From positions 1 through 64,000 of the forward strand of contig QPGO01000297.1 of NCBI GenBank assembly GCA_008632985.1: a stretch of 64,000 bases of DNA, in the 5' to 3' direction. The stretch comes from Psammoneis japonica. Taxonomy: Eukaryota. Every line of letters starts with the position of its first letter. Within the stretch, counting starts at the first letter, position 1. Of the stretch, positions 14,739 through 54,432 are shown in pieces. The position numbers were made by a program, and so were the translations under genes. The notes under the pieces were generated by a model. It was not told the origin of the DNA, ran no database searches, and saw only the letters and a list, made by a program, of their open reading frames with translations.

Positions 14739-15591
14739 ACGGGTGTGCTTGGGACTCAAAGACTATCCTTGTGTGTGCTTTTTCCAATAAGAAAGGAATT
14801 CCATGCTATTTTTGGAGGCGTGTGGCGTCCGTACGTGACGGATTCTTCGATACGTGCCCACCAAACAGCGTCACGTCAGTGAGCTTGACCAATGTCAAAT
14901 CTCGCGGCTTTCTTAGTGTTCTAAAGTTTCTTCCTTTAGGATTTGAGTCGCTTTTTGGTTGCTAGATTAGTCTCCTTCTTAACGTCTGCATGTCCACAGT
15001 TGTCATTCTTCGACTTCGGAAAGAACTCGCCGGGTTGGAGGTCCATGGATAACACGTTGGGAATTGACTTGAGACGGAATCACATTTGGAATGAACTCAA
15101 AACAACTTGGAACGCTGCCATGGCATTCGCAGGTCTGACTTGTTCTGCGCATCCCACCTGAAACGAGCAGGAAGAAATAATAAACCGCCACTAAGTTCAC
15201 TGGACGGTTTGACACTAGCAGCAGCACGACGGTATGACGCTTGATGCTAGGGCCGCAGTGAGTCTCTGGCCGGGAGGTTGGGGAGCTTCAGACCATCGAG
15301 TATGAGTATTACAAAAAACTTTGTTATGCTGTAATGAATAGAGCCCGATTGTGCTTCTCAGATACCAGGTAAGACCTACCGTGCACCGTGCATTCTGCAT
15401 TCTACTATAGACCGACTTTTTTCTCTGCCGCCGACAGCATCGTCGCGCCCGACACAAATACTCTACCTGGTGCGTGGTCAATCGGGCCACGCTTTACACC
15501 TTTTCACCCTTCACCTCCTACTGTCTCCATTCTCTATGCTCTCACTCTCCCTCAATGTACAATATGTTCTGTTCGCACATTCTCTACACTC

Positions 15592-16010
15592 GGGCGCGCT
15601 GATGGGCGCAACCTTCGCGGTGAAGGGGGGGGGGAATCGTAAAATCACGTGTTATTCTGTAAAACACGTGCTTTGTCGTGTAAAACACACATTTTGGCTC
15701 ATTACCCTATATCTTACGTAGGATCCTACGTAGCAGGCTTTTTCGAGCATTCGTCGGTCTGTCGTCGGTCATTTTTGATGGCGAACCCAAACCAGAAGGA
15801 GCCCGGAAGTTAACATTCACTGTCAGTTCGCGCGATTTGAATGCAAAAACTGCTCGACTCGACTGTCGAAAGCACCATGACGACCCAAGCCGCTGCTTGT
15901 TGCTAGTTAGGGCGTTTTACAAAACAGGGGTGTTTTACACATTTTGACAATCTGGGGTGAAAGTGGGGTCAGGGGCACCGCCCAATGCGTGAGATTAATT
16001 CAGTGCGCCC
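15592..16010. mobile_element. PIF/Harbinger-like MITE (419 bp)
   Basis: TIRs gggcgcgctga / tcagtgcgccc, perfect 3-bp TSD ctc (15589-15591 and 16011-16013), inverted subterminal tgtaaaacac motifs, and an internal 18-bp palindrome at 15715-15732. Confidence 0.65.
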
Positions 16011-16099
16011 CTCGCAATGAATCTTGCTGGGTGGAGGTCTGCAGCAGCTGCGCGCGCTTTTCAGTTGGTTCCGCATTTTCGCACAGGCTGCGAACCCGT

Positions 16100-17727
16100 A
16101 TACCCCGCTTGAACAAAGAGAAAGCATGTGATCTAGATCTTTTTCTTTCCTTTCTTTCGGCATGGGACATGCCATCCAGCTCAGTGAGCACATCTCAAAG
16201 CGCGTTGGCAATCATCAGCGAACAGGCTCCGCTCACAATGTTGAGAGACACAGTGCTGCAGTGGCAAGTTCTGGCAAGCTATGTATTTTTCCCACGAGTT
16301 TCTACAACTGTCGTTTCTGCTGCAAAAAAAAAAACAGAACAGGCTTGCCCGACACAAACTCTGCCTGCCTTTCAGAAACATTCCGACCCTTCTGCTGTCC
16401 GACACTGCGAACATTTGCTTGTCCTCCTGGCACAAATCTGTCAGGCCTCTTCCTTTTCCTGCAATTTTTGAAACCAAAAAGGTCCAGCTTGTTAGATGGC
16501 AAAGAGCACACCACAGCAAACCTTGTGGGATTCGTGGTGTTTTTGCCGATTTTGGCCAGCGCATGGGCCCACATGTCTGGGTGCAGGTCATTGCGAGCCA
16601 ACAGTCGCTGACTGTGATGATCCAACAAGACTTTGGTGGTGGGTTGGCTCATCCTGAAAGCAACGTCCAACGGCGTATCTTCTGCATCGCTCAATGCGTT
16701 TGCATCGTCCCCATTCTCCAAAGACGCGCTCCAGGTCCAGGTGGGACCTCGCACTGCTGAACTGTGACATCGACAGTTTTTTGAATCACGTCGTGTGTCG
16801 CACACGTAGATTTCTACGTGATTTTTTCGACATTTTGTGTCATTTTACGGTGCACTTGTTGAGCGATCCATCCAACAACTTTTGACATTTTTTGTTACAG
16901 CGCGATTCTACAATGTCTTGAGAATCGCGTGGGGCAGGCGCACTTGCAAAAACGTCGAGTGGCAAGAGGCACAATTGCACCACAAACTTGGCAGTTCATT
17001 TGATGTTGAAGACAAATGTGTCCATCAATTAAATTCTCGCACTGCGGAGCTCGCATGCAGAATTCTGCGGGCCCAATGTCACACGGAGTCCCACCCAGGA
17101 CTGGAACCCGTCCAAAAGCAGTTTCAAGATTTTGATGCCAACCGCGTTTGTGTGTTGCGCAGCACAGTGCAGAGGCGTGATGCCACATTTGTCCGCGAAA
17201 TTGACAACAGCACCGTTCTCCAAGAGAAGTCGCGCAACGTCCAATCGAGTCTCGTAGTCCATGGTCTCAAAAATCCCCCCCACAGCCCAGGAAAGAGGTG
17301 CCTGGCCACGACGATCTTTCGCATTCACGTCAGCGTTGTTTTGCAGCAGAAGCATGCACATTTCCCTTGAACCAGCCAGATGCAATGGTGCAGTTCCATC
17401 AGAAGAACAACTGAAATTGACTGGAGCGCCACGTGACAGCAGCATTTGTGCAGCAGGCACATTGTCAAATTCGTGTGCAAGTTTGAATGGTGACATGTGT
17501 TCATCGTCAAGGCTTGCCGCCGTTGCACTTGCCCCTGTGTCAAGCAACAGCTGGACTTTGTGACCGGATGAGTCAGCCACAATCGCCCACCCTGGGATGC
17601 GGCAACCATTCACAACTGCACTCGCGTCAGCGCCACGCTGCAGCAAATTTTCTAGCTGCTCGGCGGTGCCACTGGTGATGGTTTCATAGAGCTGACGAGC
17701 TGTGTCATCATCAGCCTGCACGTCCAT
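16100..17727 (-). pseudogene. Ankyrin-repeat gene relic, interrupted by a MITE
   Basis: Ankyrin motifs GTAPLHLA, GQAPLSWA, GITPLHCAA and DTPLDVA. The KLLL|ENG repeat is split by the 16725-17110 insertion. TpA is depleted. Confidence 0.75.
16725..17110. mobile_element. ~386-bp MITE family, copy 1
   Basis: Imperfect ~25-bp TIRs (cgcgctccaggtccaggtgggacctc / gagtcccacccaggactggaacccg) and flanks tccaaaga / tccaaaag. Homologous to 46728-47114 and 47810-48191. Confidence 0.8.
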
Positions 17728-18799
17728 TTTTTCTGCTCCAGATCAAAACTGTGCACAAACGCAGCCCTGCGTTCAATCAATCAACGACAGCAGTTCCAAG
17801 GGGTTGGAGACGCATGATCACATGATGCGTGATGCTGTGGGTTGATGGGGATGATGGGGATGATGCGGTGCTGCGGCGCATTGCTCTTTGGATCTCACAG
17901 AGTCTAGCCAGTGCGGTGCCCAACCCTGCGCAGTGAACAGCCTCCGTGCTGGCTTGGCGCGGCGGCGCGCTCCAAAAAATGAGCACACAGACCATCATCT
18001 CATCATTTTTTAGTTGTCACAAAAAGCAGAAATCAATTTTGCAGCCTGCTCTCTTGCTCAGCATGAAGAAACTCACTGCGTAAGAAGGGGCTCTCTAGTG
18101 CCAACGTTGGCTGCTCCCACTCACGTGCAGCAAAGAACCTCCTGCTGCTGCCACTGAAGCTGTCATCGTCGCTGAGCAACGCTTGCCAAATGCCTGCAAT
18201 TTCAGCCACAAAAAAGCGGGTTGTGCTCCTCCTGCCCGGGCCTCCTCAGCACCCCAGGAAAAAAACTGAAGAAGGGCCATTGGCACCAGACAAGTGACAA
18301 GCAACACAGCTTGCAGAGAAAGAAAAGCCCAGCATGTGCAAGCTGAGCACGCAGCACACTTTAGCACTCCTGGAGTGTGTGGTGTGAAAAGTGGCTGCTC
18401 TCCCTGCAAAACTCCCAGCATTTCATTCATTGACAAAATGTTTTGTGCACCACTGGCTGGGGGGGGGGGTGATGCTCCATGGCCAAGCAACAGAGCTCAA
18501 GGCATGATTTTGTGCATCATGCAAACTCACAAAAATGAGAGCTCAGGAGGATTGCATCACAAGGGCTGTTGAGCTCAGCAGCTCCTCAAGAAGTTTTCCT
18601 GCAGCTCTTCAGCCCAATGCAAGGTTGTTTGGACTTTCTTCTTCTTCTTCTTCTTCAGCTCATGAGCAGCCACCTCTCCATCCACCAGGTTCTGCCAAGT
18701 GGCCAAGAGGCCACATCACAATGGGGCACAGACACCTCCTGGCACGTGTGGTGCTTGATGTTGCAAATGCCCTTGATCTGGCCATCTGCCATCTCATCT

Positions 18800-18915
18800 G
18801 CACCACCCAACACAAGAGACTGGCTCTCCTTGGCATCATGAAACAAAGCCCATCACTGCATCTGGATGGTGTCCCCTTTCTTCTGCCGGCAACAAAGCCT
18901 GTTTTTCAGCCTTGA
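18800..18915. repeat. Decayed repeat similar to 22125-22205
   Basis: The two sites share ggcatcatgaa..gccc..ctggatgg..caaagcctgtttttcagccttg. Identity of the element is unknown. Confidence 0.5.
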
Positions 18916-20099
18916 CCACTTGCAAGAACACTCCCTCTCTGACCTTGCCATCCATGAGTTGATTAGACCTTCAAGATTGCCTGGTCAGAGAGCAGAGCTC
19001 ACCTTTTGTTGCAGGGAGTTTCAGCCATGGATCCTTCTTTTTCCACTCCAATGGCGTGCACACACACATTTTGTGCTCTGGCCTGGGTTGTGACTCCAAG
19101 AGCATCCCCATGGCTGTGGGGCAGCCAGGAGCCAGGGGTGGGTGTGGTTGACCATTGACTGGATTCAGGGTTAACCCACATGGTGGCAACCACACAAACG
19201 GGTGCATTTTTGTGAGGTTTGTGCCCTCAAAGCATGGGTGTGGAGAGTGGCAGCATGATCAGGAAACATTTCACTCCCCGGCCCATGTGGGACAATGCCT
19301 CTGCAGCTCAGTGTGCAAAGCTCCATCCAGATGTGTCTGCCAGCAAGAGAGCCTTTGTCGCTGGTTTTAAAGAGGGAGTCAAGTCAAATTGAGCCAGCTG
19401 TGCTGAGTGCATGCAATGGACTGATCAATCAAAAATGAGAGAGCCTTTGCTTGGTGGGTCCCACAAACCTTCAAAGTGCATCAACAGGTCATGGCTGCAG
19501 CAAACAAGTGCTGTCCCAAGCAGATGCACAAGTGCACAATGATCCCCACAACAAGGCTGTCAAAGTTCTTGACAAAGCCAAGAATGGCAACTGTCCATGG
19601 CAAGGCTCAGTCAGTTGACAAGGAAATGAGCATTGCAAAAACAAGGCATTTGGGGTCAGCATGGGAAGCAGCGTGCCTCTGGCAGGGTGCCAGTGCACCA
19701 AACAATGTCACCTGGTCTTTGGTGCAACACTCAGGACTTCAGGTGCAAGGCATGCCACATTGCAGGGGTCAATGCTGCCAAACCTCCAGCAACCTTGACA
19801 TGCACAAGTCCTGCATCATGTGAGAGTGTGAGAATTTCCTCCACTCTTGCAGCACTCAACAATTGGGAGGTGAAGGAAGGAAGCAGCAACAAGTCACATC
19901 TCAGCTGCCAAGGTGTGCTGTTCTCATCAATCTGCTTTTCATTCATTTTTCTCACTTGACATCAAAATGACAAAGTCAGCGCACAGTCAATCACTCTGCT
20001 GCAGGTTGTTCTTTCAAGGGTCAAGGGTGGGTTTTCAAGTTTGAAGTTTGGGCGGGCATGTGGTTTTTGGTTTTCTCACACTGCAAGATTGCTGCAAGT

Positions 20100-21310
20100 G
20101 AGGAATCATTGTCACATCATCAAAGCGCATGTGTTGCCCCATGGCATTGCATCAATCACCACCACCATGCCATGCATCATCATGTCTCCAACCACTTGAA
20201 ACTCCTGGCATTGAGTTGTTGAGCGTGCACTGCTTTTGTGCGCAGCTTTGATCTGGGGCAGAAGAAATGTGCAGGCTGACAACAAGAACAATGAAGCTTG
20301 TTGGCTCTTGCTGCAAGCTGTCCACAGTGGCCAAGGAGGTTGAAAATTTTTGCTGCAAAGTGATGGCCAGCACCAATGGGAGTGCATTGGTGGGTGGTGA
20401 CATTTCCTGTGCTGGGTGATTGTGAGATTCTTCACAACTGCCAACCACTTTTGCAAAGAGACCAGCTGTTGCTTGTTGGAGCAGGGACAAGCACAATGGC
20501 AACTCAAAGTGGCAGCACACCACTGCACACCTTTTTGGCCATAAGCAAGCATGTTGCACAAATGCCGGCACCACATGGTGATCCAGCCAACAAGGGGAGC
20601 CATGTTGCTGGAGCTGTGCTGAGCAGGAAAGATCATTGTGGGCAAGCACCTCTTTGCCAGGCTGCCACAGCAAAGCACATGAAGGTTGCATGAGCTCTCT
20701 CAGAGAAGTGCACTTCCAAGCCACAAACCTCTGCACATTTGGCATTGTTGAAGCCTGAGAGGAAGAGTGCTGCCAGACTCTTGAAGCTGCTCTTGAAGAA
20801 TGGGGGACCACAATTTACATGCACTGAGTTTCAATGGCAAAAACACCTTTAGATGCTGCTTTCAGGAAGAGCCAGTCTGCTGCTGAATTTTGTTGGAGCA
20901 TCTCAGTCAGCCACTCTTGGCTCCTTGCAATGACTTGCACCCAGGTGTGCTGCCAGTGCTCTGACCAAAGTTGGCAATCTTTGCTTTGCAGCAAGCTGGG
21001 CCTTTCTGGTTTCAAGAGTTGCAGGAAAAGGATGAGGTCCAACAGGTTTGAAGTGGGCAGACAAGCAATTTGCAGCATCAGGCAGCAGAAGGGATGTCAT
21101 TTTTGTGCAAGGCTGGCAGAGCTGGTGTGTTGGGCAACATTGGCCTGTGCTGGTTTTGGTGGCAGAAATGACATGTGTGGAGATGTGTGAAAAAATGCAC
21201 GGCTCTGTCTCTCAGCACAATGGACCCCATTCTGTGGCAGTGACAAGGTGGCATGTCACGCAAAAGAGAAAAAGCCACCCAGGTCATGTTGCTTTGTCCA
21301 AGCCAAGTTG
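20100..21310 (+). pseudogene. More heavily mutated, inverted copy of the ankyrin gene, without the MITE
   Basis: GSTPLHT, GQAPLCQA and KTPLDAAFRKSQ motifs. 20990-21300 aligns in reverse with 16110-16495. The KLLLKNG site is uninterrupted. Confidence 0.7.
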
Positions 21311-22439
21311 GTGGTCAGCTGTGAGCCTTGAATGTGGTGTCATTGCTGGATCATTTTGGCAACCAGCCAATTTTGTTGTGTCATTCAGTGCTCCTGCAAT
21401 GGCCACATTCCAGACACACGCACAAACTGCGCACATGCATCTCATGACATTCGGAACCCATGATTGAATGTCTTCTCTCACAAAAGACAAATGATGAGCA
21501 AGGCATTCAAAACACACAAGAATTTGCACATGGCAGCAGGGTGGCACAATGGTGCTGCCAGCTGGGCTTTAGCACACAACATCAAATGCAACACCCAATG
21601 CCTTCTGTTCCAAAACAGTCTCAGATGCACACAAGATTTGTTCTGGGACAGTTCCCAGGACAAAAAATGTGCATTGCTGGTGGGCTGAACTCCCAGCAGA
21701 AAATGAAGGATCTTGCCACATTTTCCATCTGGCACCCAGTTGCAGAAGTTGCAGCTGTTGCTGCATGGAGTGCTTGGCACTGCTCCAGCAGTGCTGGCAC
21801 CCACTTTTACACTCCTGCTGCCTGTCATGGTTCTCACCCAGCAACAAACCAACAGTTTTGAGCATGTCTTGGGTGCTGTGAGGATGTGCTCACTGTGCAC
21901 TCAGAGTCAGCACTCTTGATGTTTGTTGTGTCTGGACATTTCTTGTTTTTCTGGAGCCAGAGCCAGGCAGCCTTTTCAGCAAAGGCTGCAAAAGCCAAAA
22001 CAAGGGGATTTGCAATGACAGTGGAGTCCAAGGGCACACTTGCCAAAGCAAGGGAGTTTGCAGCAGCAATGGAGTCTAAAGACTTGCTTCTCATGGCCAC
22101 CCCACAAAAGATGTTGAGGATCCCTGGCATCATGAACAAATGCCCATTGCTTCTGGATGGGCCCCTTCCTTCCACCAGGGACAAAGCCTGTTTTTCAGCC
22201 TTGGCTGCTTGCAACAATGCTCCTCTGACCTTGTCAGTTGTGAATTGACCTGACTTTCAAGGGCAGCCAAGGAGTGAGGTGCTTGTTGAAAGCAGTGCAA
22301 GAGGCTGAGTTTGTGTTGGCCAACAACATTTCCCATGTCAGCTGCCAAGTGGAGATGACTGGTTGATGATGACAGATGTGAGAGGAAATGATGACCTTGT
22401 GGAGGCATGACTCAGAGAGCAAGCACAGCTGACAGACTG

Positions 22440-23630
22440 TCAAGACTGAAGAAGTTCCAAAATCAGCATGTGCGTGACTGTTGTCCATGCCTCAATGCAA
22501 GTGGCTGGCTCATGTTCCTTGACCTGGGGCTGGGAACTTGGGTTTCTTGGGACTTTCATGTGGCAAAGGTTTGCCTTCAACTGCTTCAAGCATTGGAGCA
22601 TCCCAATCATCCACAGACACTTTGGCAATGCCTTTGTGGCACCATTCAGCAGAAAAGGTGTCACACAGGGCAACCCAGTTGGGGCATGGCAGCTCATGGA
22701 CTGGGACTTCTCCCACCAGTCCAGGAGACAAGGGAGCCAGTGTTTGCAACACACACACTCCCCACCCCTTGGTGTGCTGACAACTCTGCTGCAGTGGAAA
22801 ATTGTTTGATCCTGCAGGAATTTTCCTTGATTCTTTGAGCTGAAGGCCCCAAGCATGAATGCTTCCCTGCTTGCAACTCCAAGAATGTCCCGGCAGTCCC
22901 ACCAAGCACAACCTGGAGAATGCCAAGGCTTGTTTTTTAAAGACCTTGGCTTCACTTTCACCTCAGGTTGCCACCACCACCTTGGAGGCTTTGTTGGAGA
23001 GAAGGGTGTGCACAGCCAATGGCAGGTGGACAAAGCCAAGCAAAAACTGGCCAAGATGACCATCTGCCACCCACAAACCACCTGAGCTGGTCCAAAAAAG
23101 TCACCACAATGCCAGCTGCAGTGTGCACAAGATGCAGTCAAGGAGTGCTGCGGTGAGTGGTTTGAGGAAGCAGAGCACGTGATCCAGCATCAATTTCTTC
23201 CAGTGCCAATTGGTGAGACCTTTGCTGATGACAGTCCAAGACTGTTCCCATCTGCTCTCAAAATCAAATTTGCGAGACTGTCCATTCCTCATCCAATGGA
23301 GTCTGTGACCAAAGCCATGAAGCAAGCACTCTCACACATGCACACATGTGACAGACTCACTTTGTGGCTGCTCCAATTTCTCTTCAGCAGTCCACAAGGA
23401 CACTGTGCATTGAGTGAAAAGTGAGGCAGCTGAGAGGAAATCCAAGTCACATGAGAGCATGGCTGTCAGTGCACCCGTTGATGCTGAATGGTGCACGGAA
23501 CTCTCGTGTGTGCACACCGCGGAGCTCCATGATGTGCTCTGTCTGCGGTGTGGTGGTTCTCCTTGAGACCTGCAAATTTTCCACCAACCATGCTCTTCAG
23601 TGCAAGAAGGGAGAGCCAGTCATCTTACAA
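22440..23630 (+). mobile_element. Decayed CRE-like non-LTR retrotransposon (RT to zinc knuckle)
   Basis: FSRKGVTQGNP (GVxQGDP), WCADN (YADD), HHLGGFVG (RYLGGFIG) and NHALQCKKG. Many frameshifts. Confidence 0.75.
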
Positions 23631-24205
23631 TGAACCCCTTGTCAACCCTGCTGGTCACACCTCAGGAAGCCCAAGCAACTCTGCATTGTTGGTTGCCCCC
23701 CACAGATGCTCCCAGACACTGTGGGGGCGGTGCTGGTCTGTCCCTTTGAAGATGCTGAATGATCTTGCTCAAGCGGGCTCCACTCATCAAGACAAATCAC
23801 TGACCCCTTGCCCTCAGACACTGTTGATGACAAGCTTCCAAGATGACCAAAATCCCACCCAACGCTGTGGTGCTGGCGGTGCCAGAATGCAGTCTCGAAT
23901 GTCGCGCACACAGACACTAAAAAGGCACACGACAACTGCCCCTCATTCGTGCGACTGTGATGCATTGACGCATCATGCAGTGCTCATTTTCCAATTTTCT
24001 TATTCATGCCACACTTGTGGGAATTCTCTTGTTCATAGCCTTGGGCGTGTTCGTTTAGCGCGGAAATGATTTGCGCCGCGCAAATCATTTTGCCGCGCAA
24101 ATGTTGGCCCAACTGGGCAGGTGACAACACACAGCACACAATGCTCAATGCGCCGCGGCTGCACACTGCACACTGCACACAGCACACAGCGAACAGCGAC
24201 AGACC

Positions 24206-25371
24206 ATGGGCAAGAAAAGCAGACGCAACAGGGCGAGAGGCCAGGGGAAATCTACCGGCACTTGCAAACGCGTTCCACTCGAAGAAGTCGATGATGACAC
24301 TTTGAGGCGCATGACGGAGCTCCTTGTCGTCCTGAAATCAACGACCGATCAAATGAGTTTGTTGGCAGCAGTGAATGGCATTTATTCTGCCACTCATGTT
24401 GGCAACGAAGGCACTCCCACCTCAGAGATCTGCGCGGGTGACACTGAAGGCGATCGCGCATCACGGGCTCTTGTCAAAGTCGGCGGTGTTGAGGCGATTA
24501 TCTCCTTCATGCATGAAAATCAACGCACTGCATTGGCAGGCTTGTTTGGTTCGTGTTGCTGCATCCTCAGCCGTGTTTCTGTTTCGGCTCGTGAGGAGTG
24601 CAGCCGAGCAATTGTCCAATCCGGTGGGATTCCGATTGTGCTCGGCACTTTTCGCATCTTCATTAAGAAGTTCAGGGGGGAGGATGGGGGCGTGTATACT
24701 TGCAGATCGGCAATCTCAACAAATCACGCGCTCGACATTTTGTGCAGAGATTGGCTGAACAGCACGTGACTGAAATCCTGCAGGCCGATGGGATCAAAGC
24801 TGTTCTTTCGGTTCTCAAGAACATTTGGCCCGCCGAAAACGCCCCACTAGTATGGTGCCAGGCGATGAAGGTGTTATATCACATTGTCGTGTCAAGTTTC
24901 AAAAATGAAAATGCTCAGCTCCCTTCCATAGCGTCGCAAAAAATCGCGGCCTGCGGCGGCATCCCCACCATTGTGGCACGCATGAAGGATTGCCCCGATT
25001 CTGAAACAATGCAGGGTAGTGGAAGGTACTTGGTAACAGTGTTATGCGATGTTTCAGTTGGTGGTGACCCGTCCGCAGTTCTTGCTGCCGGTGGGGACGA
25101 GGTCATTCGTATGGCCCTCGAGCGCAATGAACAAGAGGCGGCCCCAAGTCCTTCTCTCCGGGAAAGCCTTGCAACTGCGATTGGGTTCATGAACGATGTT
25201 GTTCCTCAGTGTCGCAACTGCGGTAGGCAATCTAAAGACATGATGGTGTGTGACCGTTGCAACACTGCTTGGTACTGCAACAAAAAATGCTTTGAGAGTG
25301 ATTGGCAGAATCACAAGGCTGCGTGTAAGGCTGCAAGGTGGAAGCCGAAGGCTATCGTTGAGGTGGATTGA
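24206..25371 (+). pseudogene. ARM-like repeat + C-terminal MYND zinc-finger protein, frameshifted near 24745
   Basis: MYND motif CRNC..MMVCDRCNTAWYCNKKCFESDWQNHKAAC, and GGIPIVL / GGIPTIV ARM-like repeats. Two overlapping ORFs join if a 'ga' in tgcagagattgg is removed. Could be an assembly error. Confidence 0.65.
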
Positions 25372-26148
25372 TTCATGGTATGTCAGAGGAAAAGTTGTGT
25401 TTGTGATGATTTGTCTTCCCCATGTGGAATGGCGCGATGGTGAAGGAAGAATCGATGTGTTGAGACGTCCCGGCACGAATTGTAGAATCGTTTCATTTGC
25501 TTGGAGCTCGTGACTCGTCGGAAAAGCCGAGCTGAGGAGATGTCAAAAAGAGAATTTACTTGGGTTTGTTTCTATCGGTGAGCTCGGTGTCATATCGCTT
25601 TCATGCTTCGAGCTAGTGTAGATATCTAGAAAGAAACGCACCAAAGCTATCTTCTTTTTCTCTTGTCATACAAGCCATCCTAGATTCTTTACTTGCACTT
25701 AGTTATTTGGAAGTAATCTGCTACCTGTACAGTAGAATCCGGTTCGAATCGAAACCGGAAGAGGTTCACGTCCACCTGTTTGTCTTCCTTTTAGGACTTT
25801 GCCACATCGTACGGTGTCGTTATGTAATGTCTTCTCTCTACTTTTTCATAACATTTAACTTTTCACTGTTGTTTTTACAATTTTGAAGCGACAACCTCGC
25901 CTCACATGAGAGAAAACTCTTTGAGCAGGTGTCGACCATGTTGCTCTCCGATGCAAAACGGAACCAGATAGGCCTGAACCCTGAACGATTCGTTGGAGAA
26001 TGCAGAAGCTGCAAATAATGGCTGCTTGGCTGCGGGCATTGGCCGCCATCCTTTAACTATTCAAGTTATACGTCAAACCAAGCAGCACCGAAACGTCTTG
26101 TTCGGTGTGGATTGACACTTTAGTTCTTTCTATTTTAAATGTCATTAT

Positions 26149-27970: not shown

Positions 27971-30153
27971 TCCTTTCCTTTGACAAGAAAGATGCAGATG
28001 TTCGTGTGTCCTTTTTGTGATCAATCCGTCTGTGTGGTGCGATGCTGGCAAAAGACTTTGTTGTTTTTCTTTTTAAAAAGGAGACAGGAGAGAAAAAAAG
28101 AGTGACATCTTTGTCATTCATTTGTGTGCTGGCTGCAACTGAAGAAACCAATTGTTCAGCCTGGTGTTGGTGTGACATCTAGACCCACAAGCCAAGAACA
28201 TTTTTGCAACACCATGTGGCTCAGATTTGCACCATGACCTGTCCACACCATGCAAATGCAGCCAAGTGCTGTTCACCAAATGACACTTCAATTGATTTCC
28301 CAAGAAGTTGACAATCAAACACAAGTTGACAGACAGACTGACAACAATTGTTTGTGGTGCTCTCCTGTGCAACCTCTGTGCAACAACTCTGAGAGCCACA
28401 ATGATTGCCAACCCTCACCCCAACAATCATCGTGAATGTCTTGGCTGCAAGTCTTCCTCAACAAGCAACACATTTCAGATGCAATTTGCCTTTGAGCCAA
28501 CAGCAACATCCAGAGGAACTGAGCTCTTTTGTGTTGTTCCCACTGCAGTGGCTGCTGTCAGGGCCTTTGTTGGGGGGGCCTTTTCTCACTGAAAAGGAGT
28601 GCCAAACTCCATTCTGTGGCATCTGTCCGCTGTGTGACCCCTGAAGTTTCAACATGCAGAGACTTCACATCCAGCAATGCAAGTTGAAACTGTCAAACAA
28701 GATTCTTTGCCTGTGGATGATCTCATTGGATTCTTGTCCACATTGGAGGCATTCCATTTCATGGTCTCCTTGTGTGCACCATTGTTTTGCCCTTGGCAAG
28801 TTTCATTCTGGCCTTCTGCTTTCTTTCCTTGGCATTTCCAGATGGCAGTGGAAAATTGTGAATGAGTTTCACTCTGGTCTTTGTGACCTGCATGGTTGCG
28901 GCCCAAGTGACCAGCAAGTGGTTCTTGCCAACAGAAGATGGGCAGGGTTGTCCTCTTTTTCTGGTTTGACTCATCTTTGTTCATTGACAGTGGCCAGTCT
29001 GTTGGTTTGACGAAAGCTGCAATCGTGCCACCTGAATTCACAACACTTCTGGCAGGTGTCTTTGTTGTCTTGCTCAGGCAGCATGCTGCAGTGCCACTTT
29101 TCAACCTTCTCATCTTTTTAAAACATGGCAGGTTTGTGCCATTTTGTTTTTGCACTGTGTCTGTCAGAGGAACATTTTTGTGTTGCAGCATTTCTTCCCA
29201 CACAAAGTTGTTTGGAGGAAGACACAAAGCACGCTGGCAACAACAGATGTGTTTTCATCCTGGGTGAGAAACTTTTGGACACATCACGAGGTTTTCTACG
29301 TGTTTCTACATGAGACGTACATTTAGCACCAAAAATCTTAGTAAAAAACGAGCTCCATGACAGCAAAAATATATTTTTCCATGTCTCGAACCACAAACCA
29401 CAATTCGCGCAAACCGAAAATGGCACCATGCCGTCGCCATGAACTCGTCCATTCTTACACCAACGGATGTTGTGACTGAGAAGGTGAGAATGCCGAGACA
29501 GGTCAATGAGACAACGCTCAGTGCGATGATGTGGTTGAAAATTTGATCTTTGTTTTTTGTTGTGCCTCATGGATGGCCTTTTGACTCATGACATTTTTGA
29601 TGCCTCTTTCTCTCTTCCTCAGCTTGCGAAGTAGGATTCTCATCAACGCGCTGCTCCATCTGCTTGACACCGGACACTGACAACAAAGAATGTTTCTATG
29701 ACACGTTGCTGTGATTCTTATGGTGCATCGTCCGCACTTTGAGTCGTCATGGACGATGCTTTTGGGTCGCGCGACAACATCAGATTTCGCTGCCGACAAG
29801 AGAATCGTTGTGTGTTCGGTTTTGAGGGTGTGTGAGGATAAAGAATCTCAGATGCAAGTGTGATAGTTTCATTGTTGTAAAGCAGAACAATGCCATTAGC
29901 GACATCTTAGTGTTGCAGCCATTTCATTTTATTCTAAGACAGAACTGGTCATTTTGAGCGGTGAAATTTTGTCAACATTTCATCTTTAACTCTGCTTGGG
30001 CATGTCAAATCACACAATGACCAGACACACATTGAACTTTGATGCTGCCATTTCAATCCCATTGTTTCACTCACTCAAGCATCCCACACAGGTCGACAAA
30101 TCAGTCGATCTTTGAAATGGCCGATCGCGCAAAAAAATCACGTGCGAAGTCAG

Positions 30154-30458
30154 TTCCCCCGATTTTTCTTGTGCAAACAATGGAGTTAGAACGCCGTTCT
30201 TTTTTGGTGTGAGCTCTTTGTACAATGAACAATGCACACATTCTTTCAAAGCAGTCAGATTCGGTGAAAGAAACAGTGGAACAGTCTCTCAAATGCACCA
30301 GAATGACAACAACGAGCAGACAGCTGTCAGTTTCACTCCAAAAAATGCCGCTTTTGAGACAGCGCTTTTCTTGCACGCACCCTTCAACCAATGAGAATGA
30401 CGGCTGGCTTTTCAAAATAAACATGTCTGTGGAAAGAAGAAACAAAAAATCGGGGGAA
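30154..30458. mobile_element. Possible MITE bounded by a 14-bp perfect inverted repeat
   Basis: ttcccccgattttt (30154-30167) and aaaaatcgggggaa (30445-30458). No clear TSD. Confidence 0.4.
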
Positions 30459-30903
30459 AGTCCAGTCAGATTTGCTCGCACAAAAAGCACGGCGATGGAA
30501 AAGGGACAGACGAAACGTCTCACCTCCGTGTGCGCGTTTCTCACCTGGGATGAAAACACATCAACATGACTTGTTTGAAAGACAGTCATTTGCAGCCCCA
30601 ACTTGGCATGAGCCAAAAAGTCTGGCCTGAAGAAGTGCCCACAGTGCCGCAGCCTCAGGGCACTGCCTTTCAACAGGGTCTCACCAGCTGGGGCAGATGA
30701 TGGCACGGCTTGTTCTCTTCTGTTCATTTTGCAGATCTTTGTTGTCAAATTTGAAACAAACCAAGGAACAGTGCACAGTTCCATTGAAGTTGTCTGGCCC
30801 AAAAAGGAAAAAAGTCCAAATGATTGACTCTCTCTGGCATGTGGTGAGCCACGGCAACTGTGCACCACAATGTGGCAAATTTGTTGGAGAGAGGTGAGAA
30901 AGG

Positions 30904-31960
30904 GTGACAGCCATCAGTGGGATGAGGGAATCCATGGGTTGCAACCAGACTCAATGCTGCCACAATGGGGCTTGCCTCCTTGGGGCCATGGGCATCCCCA
31001 CAGCCAACAAAAGGTTTGCTGCACACCTTTTGAGTGCAAGAGGGGATCCCATTCATTTGCAACCAAATGGAGCACAAGACCATCAGATGTCTCATCTGCC
31101 AGTCAGACACATTGACACTGGAGTGTTGGTTCCAACAGCTGTTGGGGGCATCCAGCTGGGCAGTCTGAAAACAGAAGGTGATGCACTGACAGCTTGCAGC
31201 CCAGCCATCTCATCTCACTCTCCTCTTTCCCAATCAAGACAAGTGCCTGCAATCCAAGCACCCCCTGGACTCTTTCAATCAACTGCAGTCCACTTGCAAT
31301 CCCAAATGTCCCCTCCAATGTCTTTGCCCTGTGGGCTGGTCACCACCAATGGAGCAACAACAACAAAAACAACCAACCCTCACCTTCCCCCCCCTGCGAA
31401 TGCATTCCATCCTCCAATCTGGGTGTCGCCACTTGCAACAAGAATTGCAGCGGCGGTCTGTCTGTGCAGTTGTTTCTGTGCATGTTTTGTGCTTTCATCT
31501 GTCCCACTCTGTGGCCTTGCAACTGTTGAGGCTTTCAACACCAAGGCACTCTGTCATGGGGACATCAAGCCTGAGAACATGATGCTTGCAACAGGTGAGA
31601 AAAGGTTGGTCATTGCAATTGATTTTGGATCATCAGCCAAATGTGGGAATGCCTTGACATCCACAACACTGGGCTTTGGCTCAGATCTTCCCCCCAAGGC
31701 TTCACTTTCCTGTGATTTGGCATGCCTTGTGACAGGGTGGAATCTGCCACCAATGGTGCTTGACTTGTGACAACAAATTGCGGGGATGCCGTCCCTGTCC
31801 CCAGCCCTGCATGTTGCAAATCTTTGCCTGTCAAACCACAATGACATCAATTTGATCTGGAGAAATGCAACAACTTCTTTGGAAGGTGTTCAAGATGGCA
31901 ACATTGATGGCTCCCTGCTCGTTGCGCATGAGTCCTTGCAGCCAGTCAGGGAACAACAGG
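30904..31960 (+). pseudogene. Decayed protein kinase gene
   Basis: HGDIKPENMML catalytic loop and IDFGSS. The 288-aa ORF has no Tyr and lies in a TpA/CpG-depleted domain. Confidence 0.6.
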
Positions 31961-32493
31961 GGTGAGAGATGGGTGCATGCCGGTGCCAGTGAGTTGTGGA
32001 CAGGCAGTCAGTGACAACACTGTTGATGAACAAAAGCTTGTTTCACACGGGTCTGTTGTGCTGTGTCATTGGAAAGAATGAATGACTCAATGCTTCAGTG
32101 GCTTGCAGTCCATCTGCCTGAGCGGGCTTTGACGATGCCTGCAGCAACAGCTGGAGCACATTGCACCAAGCAGTTGCCAAGAATGACAATGAAGACTGCA
32201 TCAGCAACTCACTGCCCAAGCATGCCCAGGGAGCTTGGAGCAGAGTGTCTCACCCCTGTTGGAGCCATGTGTGCAATCCTGTGTGCAGAGTGTGGTTTTC
32301 CGTGGCTTGTGGCTGTTGTGCGATGTGCCAATGACCAAAGCTGCTTTTTCTTGTCATCTCTTTATTTCTTCTTTTGCTGAAGATCTTTTCTTGGGACTTT
32401 TTTTTTTAGTTGGAGTTGTGCATTCAAACAGTGTTGAGGTGAAACAAAAGAGAAGAGCACCAAGGAGAACAAGAAAGAAGCACTCCATCATTG

Positions 32494-34860
32494 TCTGTTG
32501 AAGTGCACTCATTTTCTTGAGCTCTTTCATTGGCGACAGCTGTTGCAATGGTGTTGGTGGCAATGGCTCCACTGGCCGCAACACCTGGGAGTCCATGACA
32601 CCTGGGAGTCCACGACACCTGGGAGTCCACGACACCTGGGAAAGAGCTGTCCCACAAGCACAAAGATTTGCAACTGGACTCGTTGCACCTGTCAGTTCCC
32701 AAATGTCCTTGCCAGGATTGACTCCCAGACTGCAGGTTCCCTTGTGTCACTGGTTGTGCCTTTGATGTGTCAAGGGAGTGCCAATCAATTCGACACTGCC
32801 TTGTCACTTTGCTTGTTCTCAAACATCAGGAATGACACACAGAGTTTGGGCTGGAGCCAACTTTTCCAATCTTGTCCTGAAACTGCACCCACTCGTCAAA
32901 GCCATCACTGGCAGCCATGTGGGCAAATGCAATGTGACAGCCTTTGGGCGAGACTTTTGTCAAAATTTGTCAGAATGGAGACAATGGACATGTTTTGCTT
33001 GTCATTCATGGGGTGGTCAAAATTCAAAACTGAGCTGTGGCATTCCAGCTCTGGCAGCCCTTCTTTGGGAATGCCCAGGTGCAGATGCACACAAAGCTTC
33101 TCTTGCAGCTCATTTCATCTGCTTGTTTCTGAATTTTGTGGCACGCCTTTGTTGTTGGGTTCTCAGCATTGTCCAGATTGACCAGGTCTTTCAAAATCCA
33201 TGTGCAGCTCCAAAGAGGGGAATTGCTGACAAGGCTGACAACTCCATTCTTGGCCTTGAGCTTGGCACTGTCCAACAACTCCACTCCAATGCAACCTGGT
33301 TTCTTTGATTGTTCGTCAAAGCAACAATGACCTTTTGGCTCTGCCATTTTCATGCAGCTCCCTGCTGTGATTCTCCATTCCCTTGACAAGTGCTTGCATG
33401 AGAGCATCCATTCCACCCATTGGACAGTCCAAAACCATCCCCAGCTTGTGCAGATTTGACACATCATTTGCGCAACCAGAGCTCCTTGTGTGTTGGAAGC
33501 ATCCACTCACAAGAGAGGGCAAAGGCCAAGCCATTGAAAATCATTTGCAACAAAAGGGGTCATCCTTGTGTTCATGCAGGTGCATTGCATTTTTAACAGG
33601 GCCAGTTAGAAGCAGACCCTTGGCTCCAATGCTCGTCAATTTGAGTGGGTGCTGAAACACGGAAATCACAGCTCTAACCACCCACTGAGAGCAAAAGGAG
33701 GGATGCAAGCCAACACTTGATGCAGTCCACCCTCTCCCAACATTTCATTTCCAAACCTTTCAAATGCGGCCCTTCAAGATTCCGGCCCTGCTTTTTGTTT
33801 TCATTGGCCTTTTCAAAGTCACCGCCATCTCCTGCTGTCATTTTAAATGATGTGTTGCTGTCTGCACAGTTGCAGATCAACCAGCTTGCATCATTTCCTG
33901 TTGACATTGTTTGCAGCTCCAACTGCATCCAGCACATGATGCAACAGAGCATCCTTGGAAGCGGTGCTGAGTCTGGAAAGGGCCCATCCTTTTTTCCAAA
34001 ATGTCCTTTTTTTTTGCTGTTGGCAAGCCCAATGTTTGCATGTGGACATTGACGTGTGTCACATTTGGCAACCAATGTCAATGCATCATGCATTCATGCC
34101 ATTGCAACAATTGGAAAATGTGTGTTGTTTGTGTGTGCATGGGAGCAGTTTGATGATGACAACTCAAATTCTTTTCCACTGCTTGTCAAAACACAATGAC
34201 AGCGGCGACCGCAAATGCAATGCGCTCCATCAACAACCACAACCTCAACATCACACTGACATGTGTCAACATTTTGCAATCAGTTTCATGTGCACATGCC
34301 TTGCTGTGCTTTGAAATTGATTGATCGCATTGAAAACAGCTGAAACATTCAATTTTTTGCCCGTCGCTTTTTGACTGCACACAAGGCTGCAGCAGTGCAC
34401 CAACAGCAAGCTTCTTGCACTGAAACTGAGTCATGCTTCAGTGGCAGGGCCGGCAGCAAATAAAAAGGTGATTTGGCAGAAAAAAAACAACTCTCAGTGG
34501 AAAGGGGGTGAGGAGCTGTGCCACTGGGTGCATCACATGCTTTGTGATGGTGTGACAAAATCACTGGTCAATCTCATGTTGCATGAGGCACCAGCTCTGT
34601 CAAAGACAGGAAGCACGGTGCACCTCTTTTTGCTCCTGTTTTCATTGCCAAGCCGACAGTCTTAAAGCCACACTTGATTGAACATGAGGACAGCGCCACA
34701 AGACAAAAAACCATCAAAACTGGCACCAATCACAATCACATCCACCGCCTCCTCCTCCTTGCTCTTGTCTGGTGCAGAAAGCTGAGATGGAGACGAGCGG
34801 CTCCACTTTTGCTTGGGCAGTGCAAACTCCTTGACAGAAAGCACAGCACCAATGCAAACC
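32494..34860 (-). pseudogene. Carotenoid isomerase-like gene, copy 2, fully hypermutated, with an insertion at ~33950-34430; its 5' end and upstream region are displaced to ~37305-37490
   Basis: Collinear alignment with 26149-27940. 37305-37490 aligns with 27945-28130. Confidence 0.8.
32581..32641. repeat. 17-bp tandem repeat, about 3.6 copies (acacctgggagtccayg)
   Basis: Read directly. Copy 1 of the gene has a single unit at ~26246-26270. Confidence 0.85.
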
Positions 34861-35702
34861 CCACAGTCACATCAGAGCATGCATTGCAGTGGTTTCCACT
34901 TTCCTTTGTAAATTTTTTAATGTGGGTTGTAAAAATTGTCAACAGTGAGAATTTAAAAAATGCTGGCAAAAGTGCTCAACAAAATGCAGCTGTTTTGTGC
35001 ATTTCATTTGATGTCTCATCAACTTTTCTTGCATGAGCTTCAATCAAATGCGTGCAATGTTTGATTTAACAGGGATCGAAAACCACATTTTGTGATGCGT
35101 GGTGTGGTTTCCTTTTGATTGCAATCGATTTCAACTTGGTTCAAACTTTGTCCTCCTCACTCACGTGCGCGTGTCTTTGCACATGTGCAGTCTGCTGGAC
35201 ATGCAGTGCTTCATGCACACACGTGACCCACCTTCATTTTTCTTCGTTTCCCAGATTTGCACAGCCCGTTGGTCTGCGGCATTTTCAGCACATTTTTTAC
35301 ATGCGCATTTTTCTACACACTTCATGACAGTGCATCCTCTCCCCAAAATTTGAAAAACAAGAGCATGCACTGTTGTGACACACGTGGATCCTGCGTGTTG
35401 TTGCAAATCTGCAAATCAACAACCGGCCATGGCGGTGAAAGACATCACCCCATTGGCCGACAACGGCGGCTCAACATGTGGTGAAACCTGCTGTCCTTCT
35501 GGTTGGTCAAGATGGATTTTGATTCGGGCGCTGCTTGAGTTTCATGGTTGCAAGTGTGCTGTCACGAATCTGCTGCATCCAGAACACTGAGCTGCTGGCA
35601 TGTTGTTTTGTGCACGCACGTCACAAACTCACTTTTCTGCAGTGCTGGTGCAATTGTGCATGTCAGAGTTTTGCATCCAGAATCATCACAAGTTGCCACA
35701 AA

Positions 35703-36950
35703 TGACACTCTTCAAACAAGGCATGTGCAGAAAGAGGTTCATTGGTTTTTAATGCATTCACTGACAACGCATCTGTCTTCTCCAATTTCTACATCAACAT
35801 CCAGAAATGCTGCAGGTGGTGCTTGTTCCTGCAGCTCTCAGAATCACGCGCATGAAAAGTTCTTTGCTGTGTGTGACACTCTTCAAAAAAGGCATGCACA
35901 AAAAGAGCTTCATTTGTTTTTTATGTGTTCACTCATGTTGCACCCGTCTTCTCCAATTTCCACTTCCAGATCCAGAAAGACTGCCACCTTTGTGGCTTCA
36001 ATGGAACTTTCCAACATGGCATTCTGACCATTGCTGTCTTTTGCGCTTGCTGCTGTCATCTCCAAATTCAGACGTCTGGCTCGGCAATTGCTTCGGCTGT
36101 TTGTTCTCAAGAAGAAGCAACATTGCAAGTGCTGAAGGTGTGAACTGCACTTGATCACCAAATCAACAGCTCTGACACATGCTCTTGTTTCATCGTTGCC
36201 ATGTGAGTCAATGTTGGCTTGGTCTTGTCCATCCACTCCCCATTCAAGCTTCATTTCAGGAAGTTGACTCTTTGTGGCTGTGGTCTTTTGTGATTTGTGA
36301 CAGCAACAGGAGCCCCCGACACTGGAGACATTCTTCTGCTGTTGTCATCTTTTGCAGTGAGACGTGAGCTGTTGAGGTGTTCTTCTTCTCTGCATGTTTG
36401 AACAAAGCACGTCATTGCACTCAAGAACAGGCAACATTGCAAGCAGCCTTGTGAAGCAAGGCAAACTTGGTCATTGCAGCATGACGTCTTACACCGTGCA
36501 CCAGCATCCACATTGCTCCGGAATCAGCGGTGCCGGATGCACCGATGCACCGGCAAGTCTGTGTTGCGGTTCATGTCAGTTCATCTGCCTTGTGCTCTCA
36601 CAATGTGCTCCACACTTTTTGGCAATGAACAAGGTTGATGTCAGAGCAACAGCACTTCTGCTGCAAACTCGCCTGCTCCAGAATCAGCGGCGTCGGATGC
36701 ACTGGCAAGTCCATGTTGCCGCTCCTGTGTTCCACTCTTTTTGGCAATGAATGAGGTGGAACAGAGCAACGGCAATTCAAACAACATGGAACAGCAGCTC
36801 CTGCCACAAATTGGCCTACTCCAGAATCAGCAGCATGGGATTCACCGGTGAGTCTATGTTGCGGTTCCTGTTGGCAGTGTTGGTTCATCTGCACTGCACT
36901 CTCACAACACATTCTGCACTTTTTTGGAAATGAACAAAGTGGCTGCCAGC
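35703..36950. repeat. Decayed repeat-protein relic: two 171-bp-spaced units (35703, 35874) and three ~150-bp units (36518, 36677, 36821)
   Basis: tgacactcttcaaa..gtcttctccaattt..atccagaaa occurs twice, and cc(g/a)gaatcagc..ctttttgg(c/a)aatgaa occurs three times. Confidence 0.55.
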
Positions 36951-37785
36951 AGTGGCACTCCAAGAAAGCAAGCTGCAACTGCTGCTGCAAACTTTAGGGT
37001 GTTGTCTCTGTCAGTGTCATTTAATTTAAATGCAAACAACAAAATAGAATGTTCATGGCACAATGCAAATGATTTTAATTTGCAAGTTTTGCAGGGACAG
37101 AGGGCTGGCACTCTCACAGGGAAAACGTGTCCCTGTTTCATGGTGAAACAGGGGGTCCCATGGCATAAAATGTTCATCTATCATAGTTGACATGTGATTG
37201 CCAGCTACACAACTATCAAGGTTTGAAACAATGGAATTTTGTGCTGCAACAGCTGAAAACATTGCTGTGAGAAAGGTGCTCTGTGTCACTGCAATTCGCG
37301 CTCTGATGCACCTCTGCACTGTGGCTCAAGATCCCTTTCCTCAGATGAGAAACATGCAGATGTCGATGCATGCTTCTTGCGATCAATCAGTCTTGTAGTG
37401 CTCCAACATGCCATGCAGACAAAAGCCTTTGTTGTTTTTCGAAAAAAGAGACGGAGAGAAATGAGTGACGTCTTTGTCGTGTTCATTCGCGCGCCATAGC
37501 CGCAACTAAAAAACCGAAAAAGATGGGGTGGGTGACGTCCAGACGTTGAGATCTTTTTGTTTTTTGCGTTGCGGGTTGCGGGCTTCAGGCTGTTTCACGA
37601 TGTGCCAATGAAGTGCATCAAATGAAAGATAGTTGAAAAGTCGTCGCATGGATCGATTCAAACGAGTTATAAGACGCGAGGTGTGGAACAGCACAGTGGT
37701 AAGCGGTGGAAGAACGAATAATAGAGAGCCCTTACACCTTACAGTCAGTAGAAAAAGAGAGCGAATCAGCAGAGTTGTTTGAGAA

Positions 37786-38748: not shown

Positions 38749-39499
38749 ATTGCTTCGGCCGGCTATTGGATTGGTGTGTGCTTCTTAATCAGTTGTCGCA
38801 GACTGTGCAGGTTGCATTGGAAACGAGGCTTTTCTTCTGCTGGTATCACGCTCGTAATAACTTGTGAACGAAATAAACTATTTCTACATCATGCCCCCCC
38901 CCCCCCCCGAGCCATTGATGAGAAGGAGTTTTACCTGATTATTCTAATACGAGTTGAAAATGTAATTTCGATTTCACCGCGTAATTCTTGGCAACATTCA
39001 ACCTCACGTACTTGGTGCCCAATTGGAATGAAATTTGTGCCTTGTTGCGGGGAAAAAAGAGAGTGCATGGCAAGACACATGAATCTCTGCAATTGCCATG
39101 GATGGAATTCACCCGGAAAAGATTGTGCGTTAGACAGCAATGAAATTCCCATCATGTTGCTCCCTGTTACAGAGTGGAACAACAGACGTTTCACTCAGCT
39201 TCTTCATCATGGCCCAAACGGCCACCTCACACTTGGTGACGACACCGCCAATCTTCCACGGCATGGCATTCTTCTTGGCAGCACCTGCCAACATGGTTTC
39301 ATGCAGGTGCCTCCATGAGAACCCCTGTCTCTCTGACCAAGAAGTTGTCCACAAGACCAACGATTCAGGTTGTCACAAAATTGCCTGTGTGCATCATTCA
39401 CAAATTGTCAAGGATGAGGCTGTTGAATTTTGTCTCAAGCAAGTGACTCCAGCAGGGAGGCCACCGCGAAAAAAAACATCAACAGCAGTGTCCCATCAT

Positions 39500-54172: not shown

Positions 54173-54432
54173 GGTGATGACAGGAAAAACATCTGCTTCG
54201 AATCTCTCCACACTGTGAACACGACACGCAGCACACACCGTGGGTATTTTTTTTTAGCGCAGCAACAAATGATTTAGCCTTGCATGGCCCGGAGTGCTTC
54301 AGCATTGTTCACAGTTGCACCAAAACATGCAAAAATCTGCTGAACAGATCAGAAGCCTGTTCTCTGCAGCTCTTCTTTAAGTTTTCCTTTTTTGGGTTGA
54401 GATTGTGACATTCTCCCCGCTGTTTCCTTGTT

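Follow-up and report, generated by a model that had tools for sequence, protein, structure and literature searches.

As far as we know and as far as our literature search reached, the only account to date of site-specific A:T>G:C hypermutation in chromosomal DNA is a 2026 preprint on one alga, which reports TpA>TpG/CpA hypermutation of integrated viruses in the chlorarachniophyte Bigelowiella natans (Mettrop et al., bioRxiv 10.64898/2026.01.13.699255). Here, we analyzed a 64,000-nucleotide stretch of the genome of the diatom Psammoneis japonica (GenBank assembly GCA_008632985.1, contig QPGO01000297.1, positions 1 to 64,000 of the forward strand; referred to as the window), in which discrete domains, composed largely of dead repeats, have lost almost all TpA and much of their CpG. 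The window displays TpA hypermutation of the kind described in B. natans, with an added CpG component. A sequence-only reading of the window had proposed a second, locally targeted TpA>TpG/CpA process beside CpG decay, opposite in direction to fungal repeat-induced point mutation (RIP), and our results support this proposal; its suggestion that the process might be unreported has been overtaken by the B. natans preprint.

According to that preprint, 231 of the 302 nuclear point mutations detected in 15 mutation-accumulation lines of B. natans fell into integrated nucleocytoplasmic large DNA virus (NCLDV) and virophage regions, and 230 of these 231 were A>G or T>C changes, all on TpA, giving a hypermutation rate of ~6e-7 per site per generation, elevated about 1000-fold (10.64898/2026.01.13.699255). 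The B. natans genome also contains TpA-poor, CpA+TpG-rich tracts with coding sequences enriched in reverse-transcriptase and transposase domains, and the authors propose an ADAT2 candidate, citing reports that ADAT2 of amphioxus and Trypanosoma acts on DNA. The words "diatom", "CpG" and "trinucleotide" do not occur in the main text of the preprint, and a full-text literature search, with most subscription-journal papers lying outside it, returned no report of TpA-directed hypermutation in diatoms.

Like B. natans, the diatom shows conversion of TpA to TpG or CpA on either strand, confined to discrete regions of an otherwise normal genome, and a TpA-poor, CpA+TpG-rich long-term footprint. Unlike B. 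natans, which is a rhizarian, the present host is a stramenopile, and its domains are near saturation (observed/expected ratio [o/e] of TpA ~0.05), whereas the NCLDV region of B. natans retains a TpA o/e of 0.45. The targets differ as well, being viral in B. natans, while those identified here are retroelement relics and pseudogene duplicates; no viral genes turned up in the domains, although no search aimed at viral genes was made. Finally, the rate was measured in B. natans, whereas in the diatom it is deduced from the footprint. The footprint extends the process to a second major lineage, one that is ecologically weighty and in which genetic tools exist for some species.

Three further systems invite comparison. 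RIP in Neurospora and other ascomycetes likewise produces transitions at high density, inactivates transposons and duplicated genes and is recognizable by a dinucleotide footprint, but it converts CpA to TpA and enriches AT, whereas the diatom domains lose TpA at an unchanged G+C content of 0.47-0.51; assignment to the RIP family therefore fails. Decay of methylated CpG turns CpG into TpG/CpA in transposon-derived DNA, and a conversion of this kind was seen at 14 of 18 CG in the polarized pair described below, but deamination of 5-methylcytosine (5mC) cannot remove TpA. DNMT5-dependent CpG methylation of diatom transposons has been documented (PMC9998398). Deaminases of the ADAR and ADAT2/TadA kinds convert A to I (read as G) next to a 5' U or T, as would fit the footprint in the window; in contrast to these enzymes, which act on RNA or, in special cases, on DNA, the diatom footprint lies on both strands of chromosomal DNA, in place.

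TpA and CpG depletion across the window

While its G+C content is 0.48 throughout, the window exists in two dinucleotide states. Two-state segmentation on TA counts per 100 bp yielded eight TpA-depleted segments, which comprise 28,800 of the 64,000 bases and form a mosaic over the whole window. TpA o/e is 0.03-0.12 in these segments compared to 0.34-0.58 in the seven others (window-wide background, 0.57), CpG o/e is 0.21-0.77 compared to 0.76-1.00 and TG/CA o/e is 1.5-1.9 compared to 1.1-1.5, with G+C unchanged (0.47-0.51 compared to 0.43-0.48). The depletion is real and far beyond chance: the domains contain 115 TA, compared to 1113 predicted from the background rate, while 200 mononucleotide shuffles of the same DNA contained 1869 TA on average and at least 1778, and CG is reduced to 626 from an expected 1521 (Poisson P ~1e-149). 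Over 128 bins of 500 bp, the TA o/e distribution is bimodal. The multi-kilobase domains rich in TG/CA and nearly without TA and CG that the sequence-only reading had described are thus present, and TpA o/e is about tenfold lower inside than outside of them. Their proposed location, 16000-37500, was correct as far as depletion there is concerned (1-kb bins with TpA o/e of 0.00-0.09, CpG o/e as low as 0.03 and TG/CA o/e of 1.6-2.1) but too narrow, given the eight segments spread over the whole window.

The largest depleted domain, 16301-24600 (35 TA, o/e 0.07; CG o/e 0.34), keeps CpG in its left 1.7 kb (o/e ~0.8) and has a core, 18001-23300, without both TA and CG. It is followed by domains at 26501-29300 (9 TA, o/e 0.05; CG o/e 0.21) and 30001-36800 (22 TA, o/e 0.05; CG o/e 0.32), by a domain with retroelement relics at 44601-49300, and by two domains with unassigned content at 39201-40900 (7 TA; CG o/e 0.48) and 53601-56600 (12 TA; CG o/e 0.39), the latter including a Tyr-free open frame of 298 amino acids (aa). 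A depleted segment at the window edge (1-500) has a single TA (o/e 0.03) and a CG o/e of 0.31, and a short segment at 61001-62000 is depleted of TpA (o/e 0.12) while keeping CpG (o/e 0.77). One domain edge, located inside a pseudogene, is ~50-100 bp wide, and the others measure 100-200 bp. Intact genes lie between the depleted domains, and the recognized content of the domains is made up of retroelement relics, pseudogene duplicates and other diverged repeats; most domain open reading frames (ORFs) belong to no family. Retroelement relics were recognized in two domains, copia-like motifs, as read by the sequence-only reading, in a third and a pseudogene pair in two more. The proposed link to repeats and transposons is thus supported within the window.

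Loss of TpA and loss of CpG share domains, with a Spearman rho of 0.80 across the 128 bins, but they do not coincide. TA o/e below 0.2 was accompanied by CG o/e below 0.5 in 44 bins and by CG o/e of at least 0.5 in 12, five of them at 0.8 or above, while no bin combined TA o/e of at least 0.2 with CG o/e below 0.5. TpA conversion is the more complete process and CpG loss is a lesser, nested component. As 12 TpA-depleted bins keep CpG, we read CpG loss as a separate, overlaid process, which would be the ordinary decay of methylated CpG on top of a faster or wider TpA process.

The two components also occur apart from each other among metagenome contigs that carry relatives of the retroelement found in the window. 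In L058 and L060, CG o/e is 0.02-0.05 at a TA o/e of 0.54-0.59, presumably representing CpG decay without the TpA process in another organism. L061, conversely, exhibits the TpA component alone (TA o/e 0.11, CG o/e 1.0). Within L061:1-3500, the reverse transcriptase (RT) ORF at 260-2377 encodes a 706-aa frame (RVT_1, E 8.7e-8) that lacks Tyr and has FIDD at the active site, and the sense strand is 70% A+C (T 15%, G 16%), with TA o/e of 0.00-0.14 and normal CpG. From its base composition, this contig looks like a product of strand-specific T>C plus G>A hypermutation, i.e. of A and C deamination of the complementary strand. A repeat-rich region downstream of the retroelement ORF in a further environmental contig, L003:1501-3000, is a partial version of the window signature (TA o/e 0.10-0.25, CG o/e 0.43-0.72). 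The TpA process is thus separable from CpG methylation decay, with TpA loss without CpG loss in the window and CpG loss alone in L058 and L060.

Direction of change in a pseudogene pair and retroelement relics

A 215-aa open frame at 26152-26796 (minus strand) is up to 74% identical to phytoene-dehydrogenase/carotenoid-isomerase-like proteins, with named matches from Bacillariaceae sp., Nitzschia inconspicua, Seminavis robusta and other diatoms. On this evidence the host groups with raphid pennate diatoms close to Bacillariaceae; an ESM Atlas comparison of a MetRS fragment yielded no informative taxonomy. The 215-aa frame belongs to a pseudogene, copy A (26152-27958, minus strand), which is disrupted by at least one frameshift and two in-frame stops. 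A second copy of this gene, copy B (32498-34863, minus strand), is wholly mutated and more decayed; the two copies share 77% identity over 1115 aligned columns. In copy A, by contrast, the ~330 bp at the 3' end (26142-26470) are unmutated and lie outside the domain, with the remainder inside.

As its unmutated end pairs with a domain-embedded counterpart in copy B (313 aligned bases), copy A reveals the direction of change to be from TA/CG to TG/CA. All 11 informative TA of the unmutated end are changed in copy B, nine to TG and two to CA, and opposite its 18 aligned CG, copy B keeps four and reads TG at seven and CA at seven. In the reverse direction, opposite TG or CA of copy A, none of the TA and one of the CG of copy B were found. 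The remaining differences, ~25 in number, are scattered over the 313 bases, and dependence of the T>C/A>G changes on TpA is thus borne out in the sole pair that can be polarized, small as this sample is. Where both copies are depleted (1046 aligned bases), they differ by 147 transitions and 51 transversions, and they retain five TA and 16 CG (copy A) or three TA and eight CG (copy B). In this part, TG in one copy faces CA in the other at 31 sites, the pattern that would result if, once the copies had separated, each underwent its own conversion of an ancestral TA or CG, on a different strand.

The edge between mutated and unmutated DNA in copy A falls where an 82-bp stretch absent from copy B ends. 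Sparing of the copy A end could reflect a chromatin boundary beside a MYND-finger gene (24700-25371, plus strand) or gene conversion from an intact copy elsewhere. Relative to copy A, copy B carries an inserted 17-bp tandem repeat (3.6 copies, 97% matches) at 32581-32641.

Using intact ORFs of metagenome loci in tblastn searches, we located an RT relic at 22567-23596 (plus strand) and further retroelement relics at 46200-47573 and 48662-49041 (both minus strand); an inverted copy lies at 47810-48192. The parent retroelement has an intact ORF of ~1170 aa. At the RT active site, the window has TPWCADNSA where an intact environmental relative (L016) has QPWYADDAG, in agreement with the earlier reading of YADD as changed to CADN. 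Among the residues conserved in the family, Tyr was kept at none of eight positions in the relics, while Cys (6 of 6), His (7 of 7) and Gln (13 of 14), whose codons carry TG or CA, were retained almost throughout. Conserved Arg was kept at 10 of 24 positions, and eight of the 14 changes led to Cys (three), His (three), Trp (one) or Gln (one). The family is not TpA-free by nature, as TA o/e exceeds 0.4 at 59 of 61 related metagenome loci, which removes a concern of the sequence-only reading that active consensus sequences might themselves lack TpA; CG o/e exceeds 0.5 at 59 of the 61 loci as well.

If a Tyr position is called conserved when at least 8 of 10 intact relatives (or at least 75% of them) have Tyr there, the 14 such positions of copy A inside the domain read Cys at ten, His at one, Tyr at one and other residues at two, and the 15 of copy B read Cys at four, His at two, Tyr at none and other residues at nine. 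Pooled with the retroelement relics, one of 37 conserved Tyr is kept, and 21 of the 36 lost ones read Cys or His. The sequence-only reading had envisaged destruction of transposons and duplicated genes; transposon relics are indeed mutated, and for duplicated genes the claim depends on the one pseudogene pair.

The effect on open frames extends over all domains. Tyr makes up 0.18% of residues in the 228 domain ORFs of at least 70 aa compared to 2.05% in the 195 others, while the shares of Cys, His and Gln are increased. Three ORFs previously singled out as Tyr-free (22440-23141, 30904-31770 and 54433-55305) contain no Tyr, and the motifs HICGDN (127), ICCHA (207), CADN (22773) and PLHC (17175) are all present. 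Counted on both strands, the stop triplets TGA, TAA and TAG number 1408, 102 and 57 in the domains and 1359, 644 and 564 in the background. As TAA and TAG vanish and TpA loss creates no new stop, long Tyr-free open frames survive in the relics; CpG decay, unlike TpA loss, could create stops (CGA>TGA).

In-place mutation, mechanism and alternatives

The TpA-specific A:T>G:C conversion has occurred in place, on both strands about equally, in discrete domains composed largely of dead repeats, and has gone near saturation. The domains contain 3118 TG and 3167 CA, and a TG/CA skew with p<0.01 was found in one of 60 domain bins of 500 bp compared to three of 60 background bins. In contigs built independently from a public sequencing run (X1), 17087-24328 is reproduced as one 7245-base piece with six other letters and three indels, at a depth of 60.6 compared to 60.1 for a flanking single-copy contig, which argues against an assembler or base-caller artefact. 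Within 16301-24600, the window and the X1 contigs differ at 11 sites, six of the CG<->TG kind, three of the TA<->TG/CA kind, one other transition and one transversion, where about half of random transitions would be expected to be of the first two kinds; small as these numbers are, they hint that both processes are recent or ongoing. Discordance between the pseudogene copies, a domain edge that cuts through copy A, the X1 variants and the involvement of both strands together indicate in-place chromosomal mutation rather than insertion of pre-edited retrocopies.

Based on these results, we consider it probable that a TpA-specific A:T>G:C process acts in situ on silenced DNA and that ordinary 5mC decay has been added to it. 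The first process would convert TpA to TpG on one strand and to CpA on the other, and may be the same phenomenon as in B. natans. The second would convert CpG to TpG/CpA by deamination of 5mC on methylated transposons, less completely and only inside TpA-depleted DNA. The TpA process would most likely be an enzymatic deamination of adenine in DNA at 5'-TA to hypoxanthine, which pairs with C, and candidate enzymes are nucleic-acid deaminases of the TadA/ADAT2 kind or others sharing their fold. The natural TadA/ADAT2 target, A34, follows U33. A 5'-U neighbor is preferred by ADAR-type and ADAT-derived editing (PMC10661471), and an ADAT2 homolog is what the B. natans authors propose; these preferences and the pairing of hypoxanthine are our reasons for suggesting adenine deamination.

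The 3' neighbor may matter as well. Among the 115 surviving TA, TAT accounts for 9% (27% in the background), TAC for 22% (28%) and TAA for 44% (24%; chi-square p 1.5e-14), ATAT is found at none and TTAA at 23. Where polarized sites offered a 3' pyrimidine on one strand and a purine on the other, the pyrimidine strand was hit in six of seven cases.

More tentatively, diatoms could share with B. natans a TpA-directed DNA-editing defense that is old and spread over at least the SAR group (stramenopiles, alveolates and Rhizaria), a "reverse RIP" in which an adenine deaminase, possibly with a 3'-pyrimidine preference, is directed to silenced chromatin independently of cytosine methylation; we regard this wider proposal as possible, though falling short of an even chance. 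If true, such a shared defense would erase transposons and dead gene copies without creating stop codons and seed protein catalogues with Tyr-free pseudo-proteins.

Several observations weigh against the in situ process as outlined, or limit it. The B. natans regions have no C>T component (one non-A:T>G:C change in 211), so that the CpG decay of the diatom is without counterpart there. At 37000-37249, on a 250-bp scale, DNA is CpG-poor (one CG) with normal TA (nine TA), the sole such place seen. The deficit of 998 TA and 895 CG (1893 in sum) is matched by the surplus of 1917 TG+CA, which speaks in favor of the proposed conversions, although this balance presumes that the domains once had background composition. 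The evidence on the 3' neighbor is mixed: the Tyr>Cys to Tyr>His ratio is independent of the neighbor on the alternative strand (8:3 compared to 7:3), showing no dependence on the preceding base, and the surviving TA could be back-mutations, which leaves a 3' preference tentative. The excess of Tyr>Cys over Tyr>His (15:6 overall, 10:1 in copy A) hints at a local strand bias for which we have no explanation. Moreover, in the young subfamily of a very high-copy repeat (16671-17338, see below), depletion may partly predate amplification, a partly mutated element having been amplified. Lastly, run X1 derives from the same sample as the assembly and hence is not fully independent.

The same chemistry might instead be triggered, in a RIP-like manner, by recognition of duplicated DNA, for instance before meiosis, rather than by chromatin state. 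After collapsing transitions (purine/pyrimidine space), 27 of 33 repeat segments link two domains, four more link the unmutated end of copy A to a domain and two lie in normal DNA; both pseudogene copies are mutated, and some diatoms carry a DNMT4 that groups with fungal RID (PMC9998398). However, the last 330 bp of copy A are spared despite their homology to copy B, depletion runs continuously over unrelated pieces (repeat, ankyrin ORF, RT relic), and the main target in B. natans is single-copy (10.64898/2026.01.13.699255). For these reasons we favor targeting via a silent chromatin state and consider homology sensing unlikely. The neighboring LRR and F5/8 type C paralogs at 9149-11050 and 12441-14738 (plus strand), which lie in normal DNA and have kept both TpA and CpG, are too diverged for a fair test of this alternative.

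Pol-eta A>G errors at WA motifs constitute phase 2 of antibody somatic hypermutation, and T:G or U:G mismatches arising from 5mC deamination could similarly recruit mismatch repair and a Pol-eta-like polymerase to the domains. Such a coupling would account for the shared location of TpA and CpG loss, and TA is the hottest WA motif. On the other hand, 12 of 56 TpA-depleted bins keep CpG, five of them at o/e of 0.8 or above, ApA, which a WA process should likewise erode, shows no depletion in the domains (AA o/e 1.1-1.35), and loss of TpA is near total, with 115 of ~1113 left. Error-prone repair thus appears improbable as the source of the TpA loss.

TpA is self-complementary, and the sequence by itself is therefore compatible with damage to either T or A. 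A modified T at TpA, akin to 5-hydroxymethyluracil or base J and produced by a TET/JBP-type enzyme, might mispair or be misrepaired to give T>C. Nothing in the window points to a modified T, and we know of no such modification in diatoms, although we did not search for it specifically; we rate thymine-side chemistry as slightly less probable still than error-prone repair.

Element transcripts might also undergo A-to-I hyperediting and then be reverse-transcribed and inserted as already edited copies. The 5'-U preference of ADAR-type and ADAT-derived editing (PMC10661471) and the 15:6 excess of Tyr>Cys, a sense-strand A>G change, are in favor of this route. Retrocopies of edited RNA should carry sense-strand changes only, yet TG and CA are equally frequent overall, and the polarized changes in copy B lie on the antisense strand in nine of 11 cases. 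Furthermore, domain edges do not follow element edges, DNA between recognized relics is likewise depleted and TA<->TG/CA variants segregate in place. Hyperediting with retrotransposition is accordingly a very improbable origin of the domains.

That no mutational process is involved, and that the domains reflect a sequencing or assembly artefact, foreign DNA of odd composition or selection against TA and CG, is scarcely credible despite the oddity of the sequence and the common sample origin of the assembly and the sole run with the stretch, given that 7.2 kb of domain reappear in the X1 contigs at flank-equal depth, that the affected sequences are homologs of a host gene and of a retroelement family of normal composition, and that polarity and TG/CA discordance between copies fit mutation. 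We also rejected GC-biased gene conversion, which is not TpA-specific and moves CpG the opposite way, the UV TA photoproduct, which gives the wrong substitution type, and a mechanism based on N6-methyladenine, which in eukaryotes sits at ApT.

Repeats, open frames and related sequences

The very high-copy repeat at 16671-17338 is a piece of the 3' region of the retroelement, with 75-80% identical copies in self-BLAST at 46743-47117 and 47811-48186 (inverted). The summed word depth of this repeat is 44,352-128,153 compared to ~60 in the flanks, 1395 X1 contigs match it at 95% identity or more, and it is TA-poor (~7 TA in 443 bp) with normal CpG. A second public run, X2, whose library type is not on record, covers the flanks of the surrounding domain (15001-16010 and 24483-25000) and nothing inside 16.3-24.6 kb; if it were RNA, this domain would be silent, and we draw no conclusion from it.

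An open ankyrin-repeat ORF at 17032-17742 (minus strand; Pfam Ank, E 6.6e-19) lies in TpA-depleted, CpG-normal DNA. Its 237 codons contain 40 CG and three TA, two of which account for the two Tyr codons of the ORF; no TA spans a codon boundary, whereas nine other ORFs of the window have 17-49 TA-containing codons and 11-34 cross-codon TA. As TpA loss alone makes no stops, the openness of this frame proves little, and the ORF represents either a gene maintained by selection within mutated DNA or a copy that was mutated only recently. A homolog search returned only distant ankyrin proteins of at most 37% identity, so that the change of PLHY to PLHC proposed by the sequence-only reading cannot be polarized and is unsupported.

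Pfam families were assigned to 13 of the 28 ORFs of at least 200 aa, 11 of them outside the domains; the two inside are the ankyrin ORF and a sub-threshold kinase (Pkinase). These were also the only matches among 143 domain ORFs of at least 85 aa, the other 141 having no family. Nor were Pfam families found for the copia-like frames (1-320), the relic ORFs (46917-48195) or the intact 1167-aa ORF of L016, while L004 gave a sub-threshold RVT_1 match (18.4 bits, cut-off 29.6). Consequently, the motifs HICGDN and ICCHA in 1-500 are present as described, but the copia identity of the two frames rests on motif reading. Scans of the window for tRNA, Rfam families and tandem repeats gave nothing relevant.

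A word-seeded search with the mutated retroelement ORF retrieved four relatives, and an exhaustive search 936. Twelve of the best 150 cluster representatives of these 936 are Tyr-free, compared to 3.2 expected from their lengths, and their diagnostic Tyr positions (KKKYL, KPYS, GYV) read Cys or His in records from JGI/IMG, ENA and Logan. TA o/e plotted against TG/CA o/e, together with Tyr-free ORFs, provides a simple genome-wide marker for mapping targets and for finding the enzyme by comparative genomics. Long Tyr-free frames of such relics, which are already present in public protein sets, can be taken for genes and pose an annotation hazard. A spurious long frame of the window, at 32438-33178 (plus strand), runs antisense to pseudogene copy B.

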